This document shows, piece by piece, positions 1 through 8,444 of a stretch of DNA of 64,000 bases. A program made the position numbers and the translations under genes. Position 1 is the first letter of the stretch. Each line of letters opens with the position of its first letter. Origin of the DNA: Candidatus Multivoradales bacterium (lineage in GTDB: Bacteria > Acidobacteriota > Thermoanaerobaculia > Multivoradales > JAHEKO01); contig CBDCXM010000002.1 in NCBI GenBank assembly GCA_965223855.1, forward strand, positions 160,001 to 224,000. Direction: 5' to 3'. The notes beneath the pieces are model-generated. The model was not told the DNA's origin. It did no database searches and saw nothing but the letters and a program-made list of their open reading frames with translations.

Positions 1-1505
1 CGATCGCCGACAGCAGCGAACACGTCGTCGCCCTCCACCGTGCCCCGGATCGGGGGAGCGCTCGCCACCTCGGCGGATCTGTCGAGCGCGCGATCGGGGA
101 TCGGGAAGGAGGCGAGCAGTCCCTTTCGAGCCCAGGCACACAGCAGATCCCAGCACTGCGGCAGCGGGTCTGCCCCTAGGTAGCCCTCGCCCGCTCGCGC
201 CAGCTCCTCGCTCAACCGCTCGACCGGGAGCCCTTCGCCGAGGCCGAGCCAGAGCGCCGCGGCCGCGGCGTTGAGCAGGTGGAGACGACCGCGCACCGGT
301 TCGTACACGACCAGGCTCTCGCCCAACTCGAAGCTGCGCACGCCGGGAGCGGGCGTGAGGTCGGGTGGGGCGGCCGGGACGTGGGGATCGAGGAGGTGGG
401 CGGCGCCACGATCCGCGGGGCGCAGGAGCGGGAACCCCGAGACGAACGACGCGCACTGCTCGGAGGGCCAGAGCGGTCGCCACTCGCCGAAGTCGCCGTC
501 GAGGTGGCCGAGGACGTCCCGGACGAGCCGCTCTTTGAGTCGTCTCGAGCGACCGAGTGCCGCGGCCTCGCCGATCGGTTCGAGCTCCATCGGCGGACCG
601 GCGTTCGCCTCGAGGATCCAGGGTCGGCCGTCTGTGTCCACCTGAACGTCGATACCGAGGAAGTCGTAACAACCCTCGACGTGTGGCGTCGCCTGGCGAC
701 TGCGGATCAGCGCTTCGTCGCGGCAGGCGAGGACCAGCCCTAGGATGGCGAGCTGTGCCGTTTCCAGGGTCGCCTCGACATCGAAGTCGAAGCTGGTGGA
801 CAGCGAGCGGTAGAGCTCGAGGTCGCCGTCGCGACTCCACCATCGCTGCTCACCGTTACGATCCTGGATCTCAGAGTTGGTGAAGTGAGCCGCGGGTTGC
901 GCCCGTCCATCGGCGTCGAGCGAGTAGGGGAGCGACGCGAAACGGCAGGTACCGACCGGATGCAGGTGGCAACGCAACGGATCGAGCGACTCCAGAAGCA
1001 GATAGAAGCGCAGGCTGTACTTGCGGCCGTCGATCAGGTGCGGGTCGAGGTAGCGCTGCACGATGCGGGGGGTGGCGTCGTCGGCGACCTCGGCCGGGCC
1101 TGCTGCGAGACGCATCCCCCGACCGCGGGTAGAGGCCCAGCGCTTGACGACCCAGACGCCCGGCTCCTGTCTCGCTGCCGACTCCCAGCGGCGACGCTCG
1201 TCCGGCAGCAGAAAGGTCTCCGGGTGATGTCCGAACAGGTCCTCCCGACCGGTCGCCCACAACGCCGCTCGAAGGTTGGCCAGGAGGTTCGGCTTGAGCG
1301 CGAAGGCGCCGATCCCGGGAAAGCGATTCACTCGCCGGCCCGGTTCGAGGGCGGCGAAGACGCCTTCGGGAGGAAGGGCTCGCGCCAGGTAGAGCCGCCA
1401 GTCGCCGTCGCCCGCCGGCGACCACCCTCGACGTTCGAGTTCCGGGCGCCACAGCTCGATCTCGGCGGAGGCGAGCGTCGGATCGGCCGACCAGGTCCTG
1501 GTCAT
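1..1505 (-). CDS. Tubulin-tyrosine ligase (TTL/TTLL)-like ATP-grasp protein fused to a C-terminal PqqD/RRE-like domain; 3' end lies outside the window
   Basis: Manual translation from ATG 1505 (GGAG RBS upstream) stays open to the window edge. TTL-family motifs appear in order: VNRFPG..K, PETFLLP, WVVK..STRGRG, VQRYL.PHLIDGRKYSLR, RFA..Y, HFTN, CYDFLGID, PWILEAN. These are followed by the PqqD-like segment LVVYEPVRGRLHLLNAAAAALW...LSEELAR...WARKGLL. Absent from the ORF track because it has no stop inside the window. Confidence 0.85.
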   Translation of the reverse strand, partial: MTRTWSADPTLASAEIELWRPELERRGWSPAGDGDWRLYLARALPPEGVFAALEPGRRVNRFPGIGAFALKPNLLANLRAALWATGREDLFGHHPETFLLPDERRRWESAARQEPGVWVVKRWASTRGRGMRLAAGPAEVADDATPRIVQRYLDPHLIDGRKYSLRFYLLLESLDPLRCHLHPVGTCRFASLPYSLDADGRAQPAAHFTNSEIQDRNGEQRWWSRDGDLELYRSLSTSFDFDVEATLETAQLAILGLVLACRDEALIRSRQATPHVEGCYDFLGIDVQVDTDGRPWILEANAGPPMELEPIGEAAALGRSRRLKERLVRDVLGHLDGDFGEWRPLWPSEQCASFVSGFPLLRPADRGAAHLLDPHVPAAPPDLTPAPGVRSFELGESLVVYEPVRGRLHLLNAAAAALWLGLGEGLPVERLSEELARAGEGYLGADPLPQCWDLLCAWARKGLLASFPIPDRALDRSAEVASAPPIRGTVEGDDVFAAVGD

Positions 1506-1582
1506 CGCGATCTCCACCTATCGCGGGCCCTCTGGATCGCCACGCTTGAACGGCCCTCCCGGCATCGAGTACCCTTCGCGCC

Positions 1583-2413
1583 ATGTTGCGCACCACAACC
1601 CCTGTCCTGACCGCCGCCGCTTTGCTGACTCTGGTTGCTTTCGCACCGGGTCTCCACGCCGACGAGGAAGAGCTCGATCTCTCCGCGCCGCCGGACGTGG
1701 CGGCGATTCCGGACGATGCCGAGGTCACTGCGAGCGGTCTCGGATCGCGGGTGCTCTCCGAGGGCGACGGTGAGTCGCGGCCGACTCCGACCTCCTGGGT
1801 CCGGGTGCACTACACCGGCTGGACGACGGAGGGCGAGGTCTTCGACAGCTCGCGGCAGCGCGGCAAGTCGCTGACCCTCCCTCTCGACAAAGTTATCGAC
1901 GGCTGGACCGAAGGGCTTCAGCTCATGGTCGAGGGCGAGACGCGCCGGATCTGGGTGCCGGAGGAGCTGGCGTACGCCGGTAAGGAGGGATCTCCGAAGG
2001 GGATGCTGGTCTTCGACGTCGAGCTGCTCGAGATTTTCGAGCTGCCGACGACGCCGGAGCACCTGACCGCTGCACCGGCGAACGCCGAGAAGCACCGCAA
2101 GGGGCTCCGTAGCGTCGTGCTCCAGGAGGGGACGGGAGACCGCAAGCCGAAGGACAACAGCTCGGTGGCCGTCAACTACACCGGCTGGGACGCGAGCGGC
2201 AAGATGATCGACACCAACATCTACCAGGGGCAGCCGGCGACCTTCCCGCTCACGGCGGTGATCAAGGGCTGGACCGAAGGGTTGCAACTGATGGTCGAGG
2301 GCGAGAAGCGCCGCTTCTGGATTCCCGCCAAGCTCGCCTATGAGGGGATCGAGGGAAAGCCGCAGGGGATGCTGGTCTTCGACATCGAACTGGTGTCGAT
2401 CCCGGTTTACTGA
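1583..2413 (+). CDS. Secreted FKBP-type peptidyl-prolyl isomerase with two tandem FKBP domains
   Basis: Signal peptide, then two repeats of V.V.YTGW...VI.GWTEGLQLMVEGE.RR.W.P..LAY.G...P.GMLVFD.EL. Confidence 0.93.
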   Translation: MLRTTTPVLTAAALLTLVAFAPGLHADEEELDLSAPPDVAAIPDDAEVTASGLGSRVLSEGDGESRPTPTSWVRVHYTGWTTEGEVFDSSRQRGKSLTLPLDKVIDGWTEGLQLMVEGETRRIWVPEELAYAGKEGSPKGMLVFDVELLEIFELPTTPEHLTAAPANAEKHRKGLRSVVLQEGTGDRKPKDNSSVAVNYTGWDASGKMIDTNIYQGQPATFPLTAVIKGWTEGLQLMVEGEKRRFWIPAKLAYEGIEGKPQGMLVFDIELVSIPVY

Positions 2414-2446
2414 GTCCTGTTCCCGAAGCGTGACCGGCAGGGGGCT

Positions 2447-4501
2447 TTATTCGCCTCCGCCTGGCCCCTCCTCTCGAGCGTCGTGACGCTCGAACCAGGC
2501 GAGGATGTTGGCGACCTTGGCGATCAATTGACTCGGTCGGGCCGCGATGCCGTGTGAGGCTCCGGGCACCCTGACGAGAGCCGCCGGCACCTTCTCGAGC
2601 ACGAGCGCCTGGTAGTACTGCTCCGATTCGGACATCGGAGTGCGGTAGTCCTCTTCACCGGTCAGCACCATCGTCGGCGTCGTCACGTTGCCGACCAGCG
2701 ACAGCGGTGAGCGCTTCCAATACTGCTCCTGGTGCTCCCAGGGCGGCCCCGGGAACCAGTACTTGTAGAAGAAGTTGTAGGCGTCGGCGGTGAGTACGAA
2801 CGACGTCCAGTGAATGACCGGCTTCGCGACCACGGCGGCGCGGAAGCGGTCGGTCTTGCCGACGATCCAGGCCGTCAGCACCCCTCCGCCACTGCCTCCG
2901 GTGACGAACAGACGGTCCTCGTCGATGAAGCCGCGCTCGACGACCGCATCGACGACCGACATCAGATCGTCGTAGTCCTCGCCGGGGTAGTTGTGGTGGA
3001 TGAGATTGCCGAACTCCTCCCCGTAGCTGCTGCTGCCGCGCGGATTGGCGTAGACCACGACGTAGCCGGCGGCTGCGAACAGCTGGATCTCGGCGGCGAA
3101 CCGCGGGCCGTAGTCGGCGAACGGCCCGCCGTGAATCTCCAGGATCAGCGGGTAGCTCCCTTTCGGGTCGAAGCCGGGCGGGAACGCCACCCACGCCTGG
3201 ATCTTCCTGCCGTCGTGGGAGGATTCGGTCCAGATCTCTTCGACCGGAGCGAGGTCGCGGTGGGCGAGGAGGTCCTCGTTGAGCCGGGTCAGCACCCGTG
3301 ACGAGGTGCTGGATCCCCGGGTGGCCGTCACGAGGTCCGCAGGCCGATCGGGAGTCGTGGTGGTGAAGACCACCCGGTCGCCGTGGGCATCGAACTGGCC
3401 TCCGGAGTAGGGGCGCCCGAGGGAGAGCCCACCGACCGGCTGCGCGACCTCTTCGACGGAGCCGTCGAGCCCGGCGAGCGCAAGTCGGGTCGTGCCGCGG
3501 TCGGTGTAGAGCAGGTAGACGCCTCGCCCGTCGTCGTGCCAGGCGATCTGTCCCACCGAACGTCCGAGATCGGACGCCAGTTCGCGGCGCTCGGAACCGT
3601 CGCGTCGCTGCACGTACAGGCGGTCGAGCTGGTAGCCCTGATAGCGATCGTCGAACCCGCGGTAGGCGACCCACTCGCCGTCCGGCGATAGTGCCGGCGA
3701 ATCGTCCGGGCCGCGACGGTCGGTGAGGGGACGCAGCTCACCCGACGAGACGTCGATCTCCCAGACCTCGCTGTCGTTCGGCTCGTACTCCCAGTCGTCG
3801 CGCCGGTTGGCCGAGAAGACGATGCGGTTCGAGTCGGGGCTCCAGGAGAGCGGGCCGAAATGGTTGAAGTTTCCCGAGGTGAGCTGCCTCGGCGTGCCGC
3901 CGATGGCCGGGAGGATGAACAGGTGCACGTGTCCGGGATCGACGAAACCGGCGCCGTCGAAGCGGTAGATCATCCGCTCGATGACCTTCACCGGCGGCGC
4001 CCATTCCGCTCCCTCCGGTGCGGCCGGCATCGAGGCGAGCGCTTCGGACTCGTCCGGCACCTTCATCGCAAAGGCCAGCGAGGCTCCGTCAGGAGACCAT
4101 TCGAGGGCTCGCGGTGGCGCCTCGAGATGCGACACCCGGGCGTCGCGGCCGTCGCCGAGCCACAGGACGTGGATCTGGCTCGAGCCGCCGCTGCTCGAGA
4201 CGTAGGCGAGCCGGCTGCCGTCCGGGGACCATCTCGGTGAGCGCGGGCTCCCGGGACCGGTCACCAGTGGGCGCGGCACACCGCCGTCGATGTCTGCGAT
4301 CCAGATCTCCGAGCTGCGCTGGTCGACCTGGATGTCCATCGAATTGCGAACGAACGCCACCCGGTCGCCGGCGGGGGAGATGCGGGGATCGGAGGCCCAC
4401 TCGAGCTCGAAGACGTCTCGAAGCTGCAGGGGCTCTCCTTCGAGCGCGACGGGTGCAAGGACGACGAGGAGCAGGGCGATGACGATGCGGGGTCGGAGCA
4501 T
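2447..4501 (-). CDS. S9 family (acylaminoacyl/dipeptidyl) peptidase with beta-propeller, secreted
   Basis: WSPDG propeller repeats, IHGGP, NPRGS, GGSGGG nucleophile motif, EDYRTP, SHG; start placed at MLRPRIVIALL (signal peptide). Confidence 0.92.
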   Translation of the reverse strand: MLRPRIVIALLLVVLAPVALEGEPLQLRDVFELEWASDPRISPAGDRVAFVRNSMDIQVDQRSSEIWIADIDGGVPRPLVTGPGSPRSPRWSPDGSRLAYVSSSGGSSQIHVLWLGDGRDARVSHLEAPPRALEWSPDGASLAFAMKVPDESEALASMPAAPEGAEWAPPVKVIERMIYRFDGAGFVDPGHVHLFILPAIGGTPRQLTSGNFNHFGPLSWSPDSNRIVFSANRRDDWEYEPNDSEVWEIDVSSGELRPLTDRRGPDDSPALSPDGEWVAYRGFDDRYQGYQLDRLYVQRRDGSERRELASDLGRSVGQIAWHDDGRGVYLLYTDRGTTRLALAGLDGSVEEVAQPVGGLSLGRPYSGGQFDAHGDRVVFTTTTPDRPADLVTATRGSSTSSRVLTRLNEDLLAHRDLAPVEEIWTESSHDGRKIQAWVAFPPGFDPKGSYPLILEIHGGPFADYGPRFAAEIQLFAAAGYVVVYANPRGSSSYGEEFGNLIHHNYPGEDYDDLMSVVDAVVERGFIDEDRLFVTGGSGGGVLTAWIVGKTDRFRAAVVAKPVIHWTSFVLTADAYNFFYKYWFPGPPWEHQEQYWKRSPLSLVGNVTTPTMVLTGEEDYRTPMSESEQYYQALVLEKVPAALVRVPGASHGIAARPSQLIAKVANILAWFERHDAREEGPGGGE

Positions 4502-4573
4502 GAGGGCCTCACTTGATCGCGGGCTGCGGCCCGCTGAACGGTTTCCGAATGGGAAGCTGACTATACTGGCGAG

Positions 4574-5347
4574 GTGATCCTCTCCTTCGCGAATCTGAAA
4601 GGGGGAGTCGGCAAGACGACGAGTGCGGTCAGCGTCGCGGCTGCGCTGGCTCGCTCCCACCTGAAGGTTCTGCTCGTCGATCTCGATCCGCAGGCCAACG
4701 CCGCCTACTCGGTGGGAGTGCCGGCGAAGACCGCCGGCGGCTCGCTCGCGGAGGTCTTCATCGACAACCGGCCGCTGCGAGAGGTGCTCTGGGAAACGCC
4801 GATCGAAGGACTCGATGTCGCCGTTGCGGGAGTCGAGCTTTCGACCCGCCAGTTGGAGGTCATGCGGCGCTCGTACCCGACACGGCTGTTGCAGAAGGCG
4901 CTGGTCGGGGTCCGGACTCGCTATGACTTCGTCGTGATCGACTGCCCGGCCGGCCTCGATCTGGCGGCGCTGATGGGACTGCAGGCATCGACTGCGTTTA
5001 TCGTGCCGACATCACCGAACTACCTCGGACTCGAATCGCTCGAGCTCTTCTTCCAGGGGCTCGAGCAGTTGCCGGCCGAACTCAAGCCGAGGGTGCGACT
5101 GCTCGGTATCCTGCTGACCGTGGTGGATCACCGGGTGCGGCTCACCGAGGAGGTCTGCAGCGAAGTGAGGCGGCGCTACGGTCGCGCGGTCTTTCGCACC
5201 GAGATTCCCATCAACGTCCGGCTGGCGGAGGCCGCGGAGTCCGGCCGCGGGATCTTCGGCTACCAGAGCTGGTCGAAGGGCGCCGCCGCCTACAGCCGGC
5301 TGGGCGCGGAGATGCTGCGGCGCGCCCGGCGACTCGGCCTCGAGTGA
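4574..5347 (+). CDS. ParA/Soj-family ATPase (orphan, no parB adjacent)
   Basis: KGGVGKTT deviant Walker A, DLDPQAN, IDCP, NVRLAEA. Confidence 0.9.
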   Translation: MILSFANLKGGVGKTTSAVSVAAALARSHLKVLLVDLDPQANAAYSVGVPAKTAGGSLAEVFIDNRPLREVLWETPIEGLDVAVAGVELSTRQLEVMRRSYPTRLLQKALVGVRTRYDFVVIDCPAGLDLAALMGLQASTAFIVPTSPNYLGLESLELFFQGLEQLPAELKPRVRLLGILLTVVDHRVRLTEEVCSEVRRRYGRAVFRTEIPINVRLAEAAESGRGIFGYQSWSKGAAAYSRLGAEMLRRARRLGLE

Positions 5348-6933: not shown

Positions 6934-7401
6934 CTACTCGGTGCTCCCCTGTGCTTCGATCTCGAGAGCCTCCTCCAGTGTCTTCTCGTCGATGTGCTCC
7001 TGGAGCCCCGCGAGGGCGGCGCCGACTTCGGGGCTGGTGAACATCTCCCGCCCGGCGACCTGGCCCAGGACATTGAAGCTTGCCTCGAAGGTTGCCGCAC
7101 CGTCGTAGCGAAACGCGTCAGCCGCCTCGGTCCGGCAGCTCTCGGTCACCAGCCGCATGATGAGCTCGGCCATGTTTCGGTTGGCGCCATCTGTCTGCTC
7201 TTTGCTGATCGACACGATGTCCTGCACGGCGGGATGGCTGGCAGCCGCCGAGAACATCCATCTCACGAGCGCTGTGCGGTCCTCAGTTGTCGTCGAGTCG
7301 ACAAGGCACTTGCCCAGGGCGTCCGTGTGCGGGCCGGCCAGAACACGAGTCGCTCCGGCAGGCAACGTCATCAGCAATATCGCAAGCCCCAGGACGCGCA
7401 T
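6934..7401 (-). CDS. Secreted conserved hypothetical protein
   Basis: RBS GAGAGGA, signal peptide, GPHTDALGKCLVDSTT...WMF...HP...C; good coding character. Confidence 0.7.
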   Translation of the reverse strand: MRVLGLAILLMTLPAGATRVLAGPHTDALGKCLVDSTTTEDRTALVRWMFSAAASHPAVQDIVSISKEQTDGANRNMAELIMRLVTESCRTEAADAFRYDGAATFEASFNVLGQVAGREMFTSPEVGAALAGLQEHIDEKTLEEALEIEAQGSTE

Positions 7402-7421
7402 TCCTCTCTTCTCCTTGTGAC

Positions 7422-8444
7422 TCATAGTCCTCCGATCGTAGCGGTCGTGACCCAATGCCTTGCCAGTGCGCGACGTGCTTCCTCCTCCTTGAGAGAGAAG
7501 TCCCGTCCGTTGCGGCCGCCCGGCATCCATTTCCACCAGAACATCCCGGCGACGAAGTCCTGTTGCTCGAGCCGGGCGAGAGCGACATCCATCAACCGCT
7601 CGCGGAGGAGGCGATTGCCGGGGGTGTCGTGGCTGCCGTACGTCCAGGGCTCTCGGGCGGCGTGAGTCGCCCGGTTGTAGCCGATCTCGGCGAAGAGCAC
7701 TCGCTTCTCGAAGCGCGAGGACAGCTCCGCGAGCTGCCGGAGGTGGGGGCTCCACCCTTGCTCGATCTTGCCTGCGTCGGGATCCTCCTCACCCGAGAGC
7801 GGAAAGTAGCCGTGTACGCCGATCAGATCGACGGCGTCCCAGAAGCCGACCTTCCCGACACCGTCCCAGTTGGCGGCGTAGGTGAGAGTGCCGGAGTAGA
7901 CGGCTCGCACGGCGGCGATGACGGCACGCCAATCGTCTTCCCGATGCATCGTCCGTTCGTACTCGACACCCACAGCGAGAAGCTCGATGCCGTGACGCTC
8001 GGCGAAGGCCGCCTGATCGACGATGAAGGCACGGTAGTCGGCGAAGAAGCGTTGCCACTTCTCCTCGGTGTCGAAGTCGATCGATCCGCGCCACTCGAAA
8101 CTGCCCCAGTAGCCGAGGTGAGGCTTCCAGAAGATCCGCACCTCGCTCCGCCGCATGCGCTCGACGGCGTCGGCCAGGTAGCCGGTCTCGGCGGCGGGCC
8201 GGAATCGAATCGCCCCGTCGGTGCCGACCCAGGCGTAGGGGTGGATCGAGGCCCAGTTGGCTCCAAGGGAGGTGATCTCTTCGAGCGCCTCACTCATGGC
8301 TGGGGTACCCCAGATCTGTCCGGCGCGTGGGCACGAGATGATCACGCCGCGCACGAAGCCGTCTCCGCTTCCCGTCGAGGCTGAGAGCGGGAGGGCTCCC
8401 GCGATCGCGATCAGTCCGGCCAGGACAGGGCTGCGCCGCGGCAC
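7422..8444 (-). CDS. Glycoside hydrolase family 113-like TIM-barrel protein, secreted
   Basis: GANWAS, KPHL...WRG.I, GVEY, YSGTLTYAANWD, FWDAVDLIG..GYFPL, FAEIGY, GMFWWKW; GTG start at 8444 is approximate. Confidence 0.75.
   Translation of the reverse strand: MPRRSPVLAGLIAIAGALPLSASTGSGDGFVRGVIISCPRAGQIWGTPAMSEALEEITSLGANWASIHPYAWVGTDGAIRFRPAAETGYLADAVERMRRSEVRIFWKPHLGYWGSFEWRGSIDFDTEEKWQRFFADYRAFIVDQAAFAERHGIELLAVGVEYERTMHREDDWRAVIAAVRAVYSGTLTYAANWDGVGKVGFWDAVDLIGVHGYFPLSGEEDPDAGKIEQGWSPHLRQLAELSSRFEKRVLFAEIGYNRATHAAREPWTYGSHDTPGNRLLRERLMDVALARLEQQDFVAGMFWWKWMPGGRNGRDFSLKEEEARRALARHWVTTATIGGL

Follow-up and report, generated by a model that had tools for sequence, protein, structure and literature searches.

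A bacterial tubulin-tyrosine-ligase-like enzyme fused to a RiPP recognition element and its leader-bearing partner: a candidate system of leader-guided amino-acid ligation

The tubulin tyrosine ligase (TTL) and TTL-like (TTLL) enzymes are the writers of the eukaryotic tubulin code, and RPGR, of the TTLL5-RPGR case, is a protein with Glu-Gly repeats. For the bacterial relatives of these enzymes we know of no function that has been shown, and a literature search found none. Here, we analyze a locus at the left edge of a 64,000-nucleotide stretch of DNA from Candidatus Multivoradales bacterium (Acidobacteriota; assembly GCA_965223855.1, contig CBDCXM010000002.1, positions 160,001 to 224,000 of the forward strand). 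The whole stretch is called the window below and corresponds to G000:C2:160001-224000, where G000 is the source genome. In this locus, the gene of a TTL/TTLL-type ATP-grasp ligase fused to a recognition element (RRE) of peptides that are made by ribosomes and modified after translation (RiPPs) is followed by the gene of a small leader-bearing protein, referred to as the partner. In the reading that we favour with moderate confidence, the two genes form a cassette in which the enzyme is a leader-guided amino-acid ligase acting on the partner.

Several described systems share features with this locus. The eukaryotic TTL/TTLL enzymes (TTLL6, TTLL7, TTLL4) have in common with the enzyme the Pfam family, the fold and the residues that handle ATP, Mg and the acyl phosphate. 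They act on acidic, Glu-rich acceptors, and the (AEGE)n and (EG)n tails of gammaproteobacterial partners, two of which end in Tyr, recall tubulin and RPGR. In contrast to these eukaryotic enzymes, the one described here belongs to a bacterial host, lacks a microtubule-binding domain, would rely on the RRE for delivery, has Asp or Asn at the position of TTLL6 K283, and has as its presumed substrate the leader-bearing small protein encoded next door. The lasso peptide B1 proteins (TbiB1, 5v1u; 6jx3) provide the best match of both fold and sequence for residues ~385-470, the NCBIfam lasso PqqD model is the commonest match in the homologues, and the partner leader contains an element, [YA]-x-x-P-x-[FL]-x-x-x-G, that is similar to the YxxPxL motif. 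Here, however, RRE and ligase form a single protein, the core is a protein of 60-80 residues and the leader has a twin-arginine motif as well; we know of no such motif in lasso leaders. Neither a lasso cyclase (Asn-synthetase-like) nor a B2 protease was found among the open reading frames (ORFs) scanned at this or related loci, a scan that covered part of the ORFs, and a lasso peptide system was rejected on this ground.

Other parallels come from bacterial ATP-grasp enzymes. RimK adds poly-Glu tails to the ribosomal protein S6 (accessible text of PMC10375531), and the enzyme analyzed here would likewise be an ATP-grasp ligase that adds amino acids post-translationally to a carboxylate of a bacterial protein; RimK, however, belongs to a different ATP-grasp family (the rimK-related model matches the enzyme at E 0.31) and has neither an RRE nor a leader-bearing substrate. 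The maturases of graspetides (microviridin type) are leader-dependent ATP-grasp enzymes with a ribosomal precursor encoded beside the enzyme (accessible text of PMC8939145). The leader-dependent logic and the adjacent precursor recur in our locus, but graspetide maturases form intramolecular lactone or lactam rings without adding a free amino acid and represent other ATP-grasp families. The HPr-rel-A system (TIGR04352 and TIGR04353) and the lasso-peptide kinases resemble the long homologues of the enzyme, in which a PqqD-type RRE is paired with an HprK-like domain; in this case, all matches are below the cut-offs, and the source enzyme keeps at most the terminal helices of the kinase-like domain.

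The system follows RiPP logic in its conserved leader, variable core and enzyme-fused RRE; its cores, however, have the size of proteins, and it comes with no attached leader peptidase. The new element would be TTL chemistry delivered by RiPP-style leader recognition, each of the two being known separately. No description of a bacterial TTL-RRE system was found in the literature, in which survey supplements and older work on TTL gene context might mention one; the main text of a 2025 RRE survey (PMC12710340) contains 0 mentions of ‘TTL’, ‘tyrosine ligase’ or ‘PF03133’, while its supplementary tables may list fusions. In this locus, the delivery logic of RiPPs (RRE and leader) is coupled to a bacterial TTL, and because a candidate substrate is encoded beside the enzyme, the role of bacterial TTLs can be tested with two genes. 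If the proposed reading is true, leader-guided amino-acid ligation by a TTL would join RiPP-like chemistry, and the system would provide a bacterial model for the choice of Glu sites by TTLLs; Glu-Gly repeats like those of tubulin or RPGR occur in some of the partners. Moreover, an RRE that reads a signal of the twin-arginine translocation (Tat) type may emerge, and such enzymes could serve for site-specific protein tailing.

The features of the locus are the following:

Window 3..1517, minus strand: TTL-RRE enzyme gene, the part within the window (505 of 589 codons), start at GTG (1517) or ATG (1505).
Window 585..1337 (G000:C2:160585-161337), minus strand: TTL/TTLL-type ATP-grasp ligase core, Pfam TTL match at residues 61-311, with the fold covering about residues 1-375.
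Window 126..338, minus strand: RRE, a PqqD-like winged helix at residues 394-464, assigned by fold and family profile and nearest to lasso-peptide B1.
Window 3..95, minus strand: start of the C-terminal domain of ~115 residues (residues 475-589), the remainder lying left of the window.
G000:C2:159377-159718 (L002:14377-14718), minus strand: partner gene, 114 amino acids (aa), GTG start 30 nucleotides (nt) past the enzyme stop, just left of the window.

An earlier note, made from the window sequence alone, had described a minus-strand ORF carrying the TTL/TTLL motif series. This ORF is real and contains the listed motifs, including RKYSLR at residues 165-170; it exits the window at the left edge and continues there for 252 further bases (G000:C2:159748-160000). 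The complete ORF encodes 589 aa (G000:C2:159748-161517), and the version in the protein collection is the 585-aa form that starts from the ATG at window position 1505. The enzyme frame shows the expected G+C excess at the third codon position, 0.83 compared with 0.53 at the second, and the overall G+C content of the region, ~68%, accounts for the numerous ORFs that overlap one another on the two strands. A signal peptide is absent from the enzyme. The TTL family is represented by a single copy in the source genome and was found in 0 of 14 control genomes.

TTL (PF03133) is the sole Pfam family above its cut-off in the enzyme (E 1.2e-36, 126.9 bits vs the cut-off of 20.1). Among solved structures, the nearest one by sequence is TTLL6 (E 1.4e-22), followed by TTLL7, TTLL11 and then TTL, with D-Ala-D-Ala ligases only at E 0.043 or above; when the family profile is used, the match to TTLL6 reaches E 9.8e-83. 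The full-length model of the enzyme, built with 71 family sequences, has a predicted local distance difference test score (pLDDT) of 90.7 and a predicted template modelling (TM) score (pTM) of 0.91 and is superimposed by Foldseek on TTLL6 (6vzt_B) with E 1e-26 and a TM score of 0.79 on the target over 408 columns; the core thus has the TTLL fold. According to the accessible text of a preprint on TTLL6 (bioRxiv 10.1101/2020.06.07.139295), the essential residues of this enzyme are K125, which binds the ATP phosphates, R219 and R241, which bind the transferred phosphate, and D346 and E359, which bind Mg2+. HMMER alignments place K75, R170 and R192, and D290 and E303, respectively, at these positions, together with N305. 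K75, R170, R192, D290 and E303 are invariant or nearly so in the 71 family sequences, and with this set aligned and conserved, the enzyme looks catalytically competent as judged from its sequence.

The residues that distinguish the types of TTLL activity suggest where the enzyme might act. At the position of TTLL6 Q180, alpha-elongators have Gln and branch initiators have Arg throughout the TTLL family (the same preprint, accessible text); the equivalent here is R131, and Arg is also found in the family consensus. The equivalent of TTLL6 H362, which is Ile in the initiator TTLL4, is A306, with Leu in the consensus. With R131 and A306 both initiator-like, the enzyme resembles an initiator, one acylating a Glu side chain. 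Glutamylases, in addition, possess two invariant lysines for the donor Glu, TTLL6 K283 and K377 (the same preprint, accessible text). The equivalent of K377 is the invariant K328, and that of K283 is D230, which is replaced by Asn in most relatives, within a gapped part of the alignment where the mapping is less certain. Lacking one of this pair of lysines, the enzyme is not demonstrably a glutamylase, and with Asp or Asn at the K283 position it may add an amino acid other than Glu; taken together, K328 and D230 appear to single out no particular donor. The earlier note had also taken the Ser of RKYSLR as a possible sign of altered specificity. The sequence was given correctly, but the hint is weak: the position varies between G, T, V and S across the bacterial family, so the Ser alone says little.

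The second domain of the enzyme consists of strands at residues 394-398, 401-406 and 411-415 followed by helices at 417-427, 432-442 and 452-464, which is the three-strand, three-helix winged helix of the solved RREs. For a separate model of residues 380-589 (pLDDT 77.2), the top Foldseek match is leader-bound TbiB1 (5v1u_B; E 1.4e-3, probability 1.00, TM score 0.83 on the target), and the top 25 matches for the RRE are mostly RRE-containing RiPP enzymes. A search independent of Foldseek (VIA-align) also ranks TbiB1 first (Z 8.6, root-mean-square deviation 2.1, 84 of 84 residues), with the lasso B1 protein 6jx3_B at Z 8.3 and PqqD itself at Z 6.2 (3g2b) and 5.8 (5sxy). At the level of sequence, the family profile matches TbiB1 at E 3.1e-11. 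The exhaustive protein search with the enzyme yielded 5240 relatives at E <= 1e-3, including 95 at E <= 1e-30 (a word-indexed search with the full enzyme returned only the self-match), and domains were scanned in 40 of the 150 listed among these relatives. TTL is present in all 40, and PqqD is detected at the equivalent position at E <= 0.01 in 29, of which 16 exceed the Pfam cut-off. In the NCBIfam scan, lasso_PqqD_Strm was the sole match in 15 of 19 homologues, always below its cut-off. The names that these proteins bear in public records are ‘hypothetical protein’ and, for a single one, ‘PqqD family peptide modification chaperone’. The matches of the relatives to PqqD, the family profile match to TbiB1 and the fold together make the RRE assignment secure. 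The PqqD-like segment noticed earlier at window ~345-115 (residues ~392-468) is therefore an RRE/PqqD fold, whose own sequence is below the thresholds: the best NCBIfam match is TIGR04353, PqqD_rel_X, at E 0.026 and 15.5 bits vs the cut-off of 35.

The partner gene lies just beyond the window, in the region left of it where the earlier note had advised a search for precursors. The protein begins with MNHPAEKPDRRTFLKRMAQGAAAAVPLFVTLGASA and consists of a leader of ~35 residues, P-D-R-R-x-F-L-K-R ... A-x-x-P-L-F-x-x-L-G-A (PDRRTFLKR...AVPLFVTLGA), and an acidic core of ~79 residues that is predicted to form helices and ends with ...AEDIDELLAVD. The automatic gene call (P0158; L002 14374-14667, 98 aa) takes an ATG inside the ORF as its start and so lacks the RR motif, whereas P0157, a 70% identical homologue, begins at the GTG position; on account of this conservation in the family, the upstream GTG (114 aa) is favoured as the start. 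The leader resembles a Tat signal as well as the lasso YxxPxL leader motif. Compared with the Tat pattern, S/T-R-R-x-F-L-K followed by a hydrophobic region and an A-x-A end, it has DRRTFLK and the ...LGASA end, with a score of 13.1 bits for TIGR01409 (cut-off 16.7); of 5 partners, 2 have a weak match to Pfam TAT_signal (best E 0.0039), and TatC is encoded in the source genome (E 3.2e-65). Scans of the small proteins against Pfam and NCBIfam assigned no family and gave only sub-threshold matches of the coiled-coil and Tat types, and an ESM Atlas look-up of the small protein, with a best score of 0.85, provided only leads of the Tat-signal type.

Related loci were sought with an alignment of six enzyme sequences, and a metagenome scan added nine loci (G045 is L006 and has the same sequence as L008; L007 is the same as L025). 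A leader-bearing gene is located less than 100 nt downstream of the enzyme gene, or overlaps it, in six loci from three phyla, Gammaproteobacteria being one of these (G000, G045, L007, L009, L010 and L014), and within ~1.3 kb of it in L026 and L031, with two copies each, and in G449. In G045, which alone among 60 relatives has the enzyme, a 119-aa partner homologue starts 8 nt after the enzyme gene; in L007 the two genes overlap; and in the Gemmatimonadota loci L009 and L010 the partner is within 22 nt or overlapping. With a pattern and a hidden Markov model (HMM) made from the leaders, related leaders were detected beside more distant enzymes of the long form. In L014 (Ectothiorhodospiraceae; 7325-8022), the partner has QLLRSLSRGIAYAAPVLAIVAGG in its leader, followed by (AEGE)n and the end GEGEGGY, and starts 94 nt past the enzyme ORF as listed. 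Over its last ~110 codons, this enzyme ORF overlaps a DoxX-like ORF in another frame, suggesting a frameshift or an earlier true stop. On the metagenome contigs L026 (1732-5397) and L031 (2067-2673), a DoxX-like gene and the gene of a long enzyme are each time accompanied by a pair of small genes whose products have (AEGE)n or (EG)n tails, one of these products ending with AEGEAY; L026, which is absent from the training set, is found by the leader HMM at E 6.5e-7. The G449 partner (111 aa; L043 1450-1785, minus strand) is encoded ~1.2 kb downstream of the enzyme, with an insertion sequence (IS)-type transposase gene between them. In L011 (Gaiellaceae), the ORF after the enzyme gene contains SRRELLKKVAVYTPPVVFGG and ends with ...SDDSDSDD, a candidate identified by eye. 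The contigs of L027, L028 and L030 are too short for leader ORFs to be judged.

In the alignment of the five closest partners, the P, the RR pair and the F of the leader, and then a P and a G, are invariant, and a search with the partner alignment retrieved 18 proteins from 5.8 billion, including P0158 and the 116-aa outlier P0171; those that have a name are called ‘hypothetical protein’. The cores are of three types: acidic and helical with a D/E-rich end (DIDELLAVD, EIDDLLD, DIEELLAD) in Acidobacteriota; shorter, with a WPPDWCAIC end, in Gemmatimonadota, judging by the two located members, L009 and L010; and with (AEGE)n or (EG)n tails ending with GEGEGGY or AEGEAY in partners of the gammaproteobacterial type. 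The C-terminal residue varies as well (D, R, C, Y, A). Aligned without gaps, the leaders of Acidobacteriota and Gammaproteobacteria have R, L, G, A, A and P in common at fixed spacing, and the gammaproteobacterial ones have lost the RR pair (RQQ, KRG, REQ). The element common to these leaders is [YA]-x-x-P-x-[FLV]-x-x-x-G, to be compared with the YxxPxL motif of lasso leaders from Actinobacteria (accessible text of the review PMC6784204). Hence, homologous enzyme genes are adjoined by a gene of precursor type whose leader is conserved and whose core varies, which answers the question of a conserved partner raised in the earlier note.

Across the 4.52-Mb genome, read in six frames, a loose leader pattern occurs just 24 times (~0.005 expected per kb) and a stricter one 4 times, and only the match at this locus looks like a genuine N-terminal leader. 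The enzyme profile has matches in 6 of 401 sampled genomes of the phylum, G000 included, one of the matches being a 50-residue fragment. The close subfamily of the small protein (E <= 1e-17) is present in exactly G000, G045 and G449, and in 0 of the 398 others sampled; these are the three genomes with a close enzyme (E <= 1e-214), that is, a co-occurrence of three out of three. The small-protein profile also has five weak genome matches (E 5e-4 to 7e-4), which for the most part are confined to its first ~39 positions, the signal-like part, so that the leader looks like a Tat signal. Because the other neighbours differ between loci, the conserved unit is the enzyme/partner pair.

The complex of the full enzyme and the full partner was predicted with a score of 0.57 (runs 0.55, 0.60 and 0.57), the best of three controls scoring 0.00; at least 61% of contacts are common to the runs, and the pLDDT of the partner is at least 69. 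Of 80 solved complexes, 58 attained the mark set for this score, as did 2 of 110 mismatched pairs; at scores of 0.60 or below, it was attained by only 7 of the 80 and by both of the mismatches, counts that serve as a rough calibration here, own alignments having been supplied. Since RRE-leader complexes are present in the Protein Data Bank, the pass may reflect likeness to solved complexes.

These observations can be combined into a proposed mechanism. The product of the first gene would be a cytoplasmic TTL/TTLL-type ATP-grasp ligase with a lasso-B1-like RRE and a small C-terminal domain, and that of the second, the proposed substrate, a leader followed by an acidic helical core. The RRE would dock the partner leader, as suggested by its fold, the conservation of the leader across phyla and the resemblance of the latter to YxxPxL. 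Given the intact TTLL catalytic set, the ATP-grasp domain is expected to convert a core carboxylate into its acyl phosphate and then to attach a free amino acid there, an addition that may be repeated. The likelier acceptor is an internal Glu side chain rather than the C-terminus, in view of the initiator-like R131 and A306 and of the non-conserved C-terminal residue of the partners; TTL-style tyrosination of the C-terminal alpha-carboxylate is ranked lower because the partner ends differ. As the most speculative step, the modified partner may be exported via Tat: with an enzyme that has no signal peptide, a Tat-like partner leader and TatC in the genome, modification before export is an attractive, unproven order of events. 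A bolder extension, which we regard as doubtful, is that the leader is both a Tat signal and an RRE handle, with the RRE acting as a Tat proofreading chaperone that holds the signal until the core Glu residues are decorated, and that eukaryotes later redirected this bacterial TTL tail coding to tubulin; were the leader bifunctional in this way, only the modified protein would be exported. The earlier note had proposed a leader-guided amino-acid ligase acting on a precursor and had named as contrary outcomes a C-terminal segment without an RRE fold, unaligned catalytic residues, or homologues without a conserved partner. The analysis found the RRE fold, the aligned catalytic residues and the conserved partner, all in support of that proposal.

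The part of the enzyme that follows the RRE is less clear-cut. Residues ~475-589 form a small alpha/beta unit that is less confidently modelled; the last visible residues had been taken in the earlier note for the possible beginning of a second RRE, a suggestion that this unit does not bear out. No fold match covers residues 475-589, the matches spanning model residues 5-93 only, so that a new fold cannot be claimed. Three architectures are found in the family: proteins of 470-520 aa that finish with the RRE, proteins of ~590-680 aa as in this case, and proteins of ~750-830 aa, to which most members belong and in which the extra ~300 residues resemble HprK-related kinase A. In one of the long homologues (P0040), residues 596-792 match TIGR04352 at E 2.6e-14, with 53 bits vs the cut-off of 200. 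In the source enzyme, there is no match to TIGR04352 and no Walker A motif, and only the last two C-terminal helices align with the end of the HprK-like domain of the long homologues; the hhalign comparison of the C-terminal 114 residues with the family alignment, where these two helices fall in the conserved end columns, is circular because that alignment contains the query. The Walker A motif (GxSGxGK[ST]) is present in only 4 of the 151 proteins checked (P0088, P0119, P0127 and P0138), and therefore the HprK-like domain is probably a pseudokinase in most long homologues. The Gemmatimonadota form P0008 (513 aa) stops directly after the RRE and keeps the partner gene. Two fusions were observed as well. 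P0030 is a fusion of Hydrolase_4 with TTL, and the G449 homologue (947 aa; L036, G449:C1:469391-474229, 502-3345, minus strand) combines TTL, PqqD (41.9 bits) and PGA_cap (E 1.6e-70), the poly-gamma-glutamate capsule synthesis family.

Several observations weigh against a leader-guided ligase that modifies its neighbour. The RRE region of the enzyme itself falls below the cut-off of every curated HMM (Pfam PqqD, PF05402, at E 0.19 and 12.5 bits vs 23.4), its best Foldseek match lies just beyond the 0.001 line, the Z of 8.6 barely exceeds the best values of 7-8 that are typical of unmatched models, and 11 of the 40 scanned homologues have no PqqD match at E <= 0.01. The partners (97-126 aa) are bigger than typical RiPP precursors, with protein-sized cores of 60-80 residues, and no leader peptidase is adjacent to the cassette among the neighbouring ORFs scanned. 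The complex prediction was graded as ‘weak support’ only and came without a reported interface. The flanks of L013, L016, L037 and L015 yielded no leader-type ORF, and the sole candidates in L012 and L038, tentative ones with similar leaders, are larger Ser-rich proteins encoded 1-4 kb away on the opposite strand. Finally, the leader may be nothing beyond a Tat signal. In that case, the small protein would be an ordinary Tat-exported periplasmic protein sharing an operon with the enzyme, and the latter would modify a peptide or protein encoded elsewhere, or itself. The fit of the leader to the twin-arginine consensus with an Ala-x-Ala-type end, the weak matches to Tat-signal HMMs, the presence of TatC and the loci without an adjacent leader ORF all agree with this explanation. 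A plain signal peptide, however, would not be expected to keep its h-region, A-x-[YA]-x-x-P-[VL]-[FLV]-x-x-x-G, across four phyla while the core changes completely; in the gammaproteobacterial versions, this region is kept and the RR pair is gone. Given, in addition, the recurrent adjacency with overlapping or nearly overlapping stop and start codons, the co-occurrence in all three genomes, and the fact that this is the single such leader in the genome, we consider the ordinary Tat protein unlikely, if the most plausible of the rivals.

It is less plausible still that the enzyme ligates small molecules or a polymer, for instance a poly-amino acid or a peptide metabolite, with an RRE-like domain that serves structure or regulation and with the small protein as an accessory (anchor, inhibitor or primer). 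The PGA_cap fusion of the close homologue in G449, the non-conserved donor-binding Lys and the relatives without an RRE could be understood in this way, but all characterized TTL members named in the accessible text of bioRxiv 10.1101/2020.06.07.139295 act on protein carboxylates, the match of the family profile to TTLL6 is far ahead of those to small-molecule ATP-grasp ligases, and the RREs are peptide-binding in every solved match listed. Decay of the cassette in this genome, with the C-terminal domain as the remnant of a lost kinase-like domain, is very improbable. The ~115 residues after the RRE, compared with the HprK-like domain of the long homologues, and the patchy distribution (2 of 61 relatives, 6 of 401 genomes of the phylum) could suggest it; yet the ORF is intact, the catalytic residues are complete and the fold is confident. 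Moreover, the short form is common to at least six sequences at 36-40% identity, which makes it an old, maintained architecture, the Gemmatimonadota forms such as P0008 retain the partner gene in spite of ending after the RRE, and the Walker A motif is already missing from all but the four proteins mentioned above. Leader-guided ligation onto the partner thus remains the reading that we prefer.

The surroundings of the pair include several genes of interest in their own right. A DUF1579 gene (L002 13694-14263, minus strand, E 3.8e-37) starts 110 nt after the partner gene, and at the G045 locus a 177-aa ORF past a 1174-aa gene (L008 12037-12570, plus strand) is DUF1579-like by eye only. The promoter and terminator scan of the operon revealed a single weak promoter-like site, within the DUF1579 gene, and no terminator. 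On the other side, 0.9 kb from the enzyme gene, there is a gene of the S9 prolyl-oligopeptidase family (window 2447-4660, minus strand), with no demonstrated link to it; in three Vicinamibacterales loci (L012 8059-10921, L013 and L016), genes of an alpha/beta-hydrolase and of a homologous S9 peptidase come after that of the enzyme. These hydrolases could reverse or process the modification or could reflect plain synteny; as the association is seen in some loci only and is not conserved, they were not accepted as members of the cassette. The divergent neighbour of the enzyme gene (window 1583-2413, plus strand) encodes a signal-peptide protein with two FKBP domains that belongs to the BamJ family (NCBIfam, 133.7 bits vs the cut-off of 100), and the ORF at window 4574-5347 (plus strand), which begins with MILSFANLKGGVGKTT, resembles a ParA/MinD-type P-loop ATPase by eye. 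Elsewhere in the source genome, two more PqqD genes exceed the Pfam cut-off (G000:C8:46853-47053, 52.9 bits, and G000:C9:1783568-1783765, 50.8 bits) and may belong to other RiPP-type clusters.

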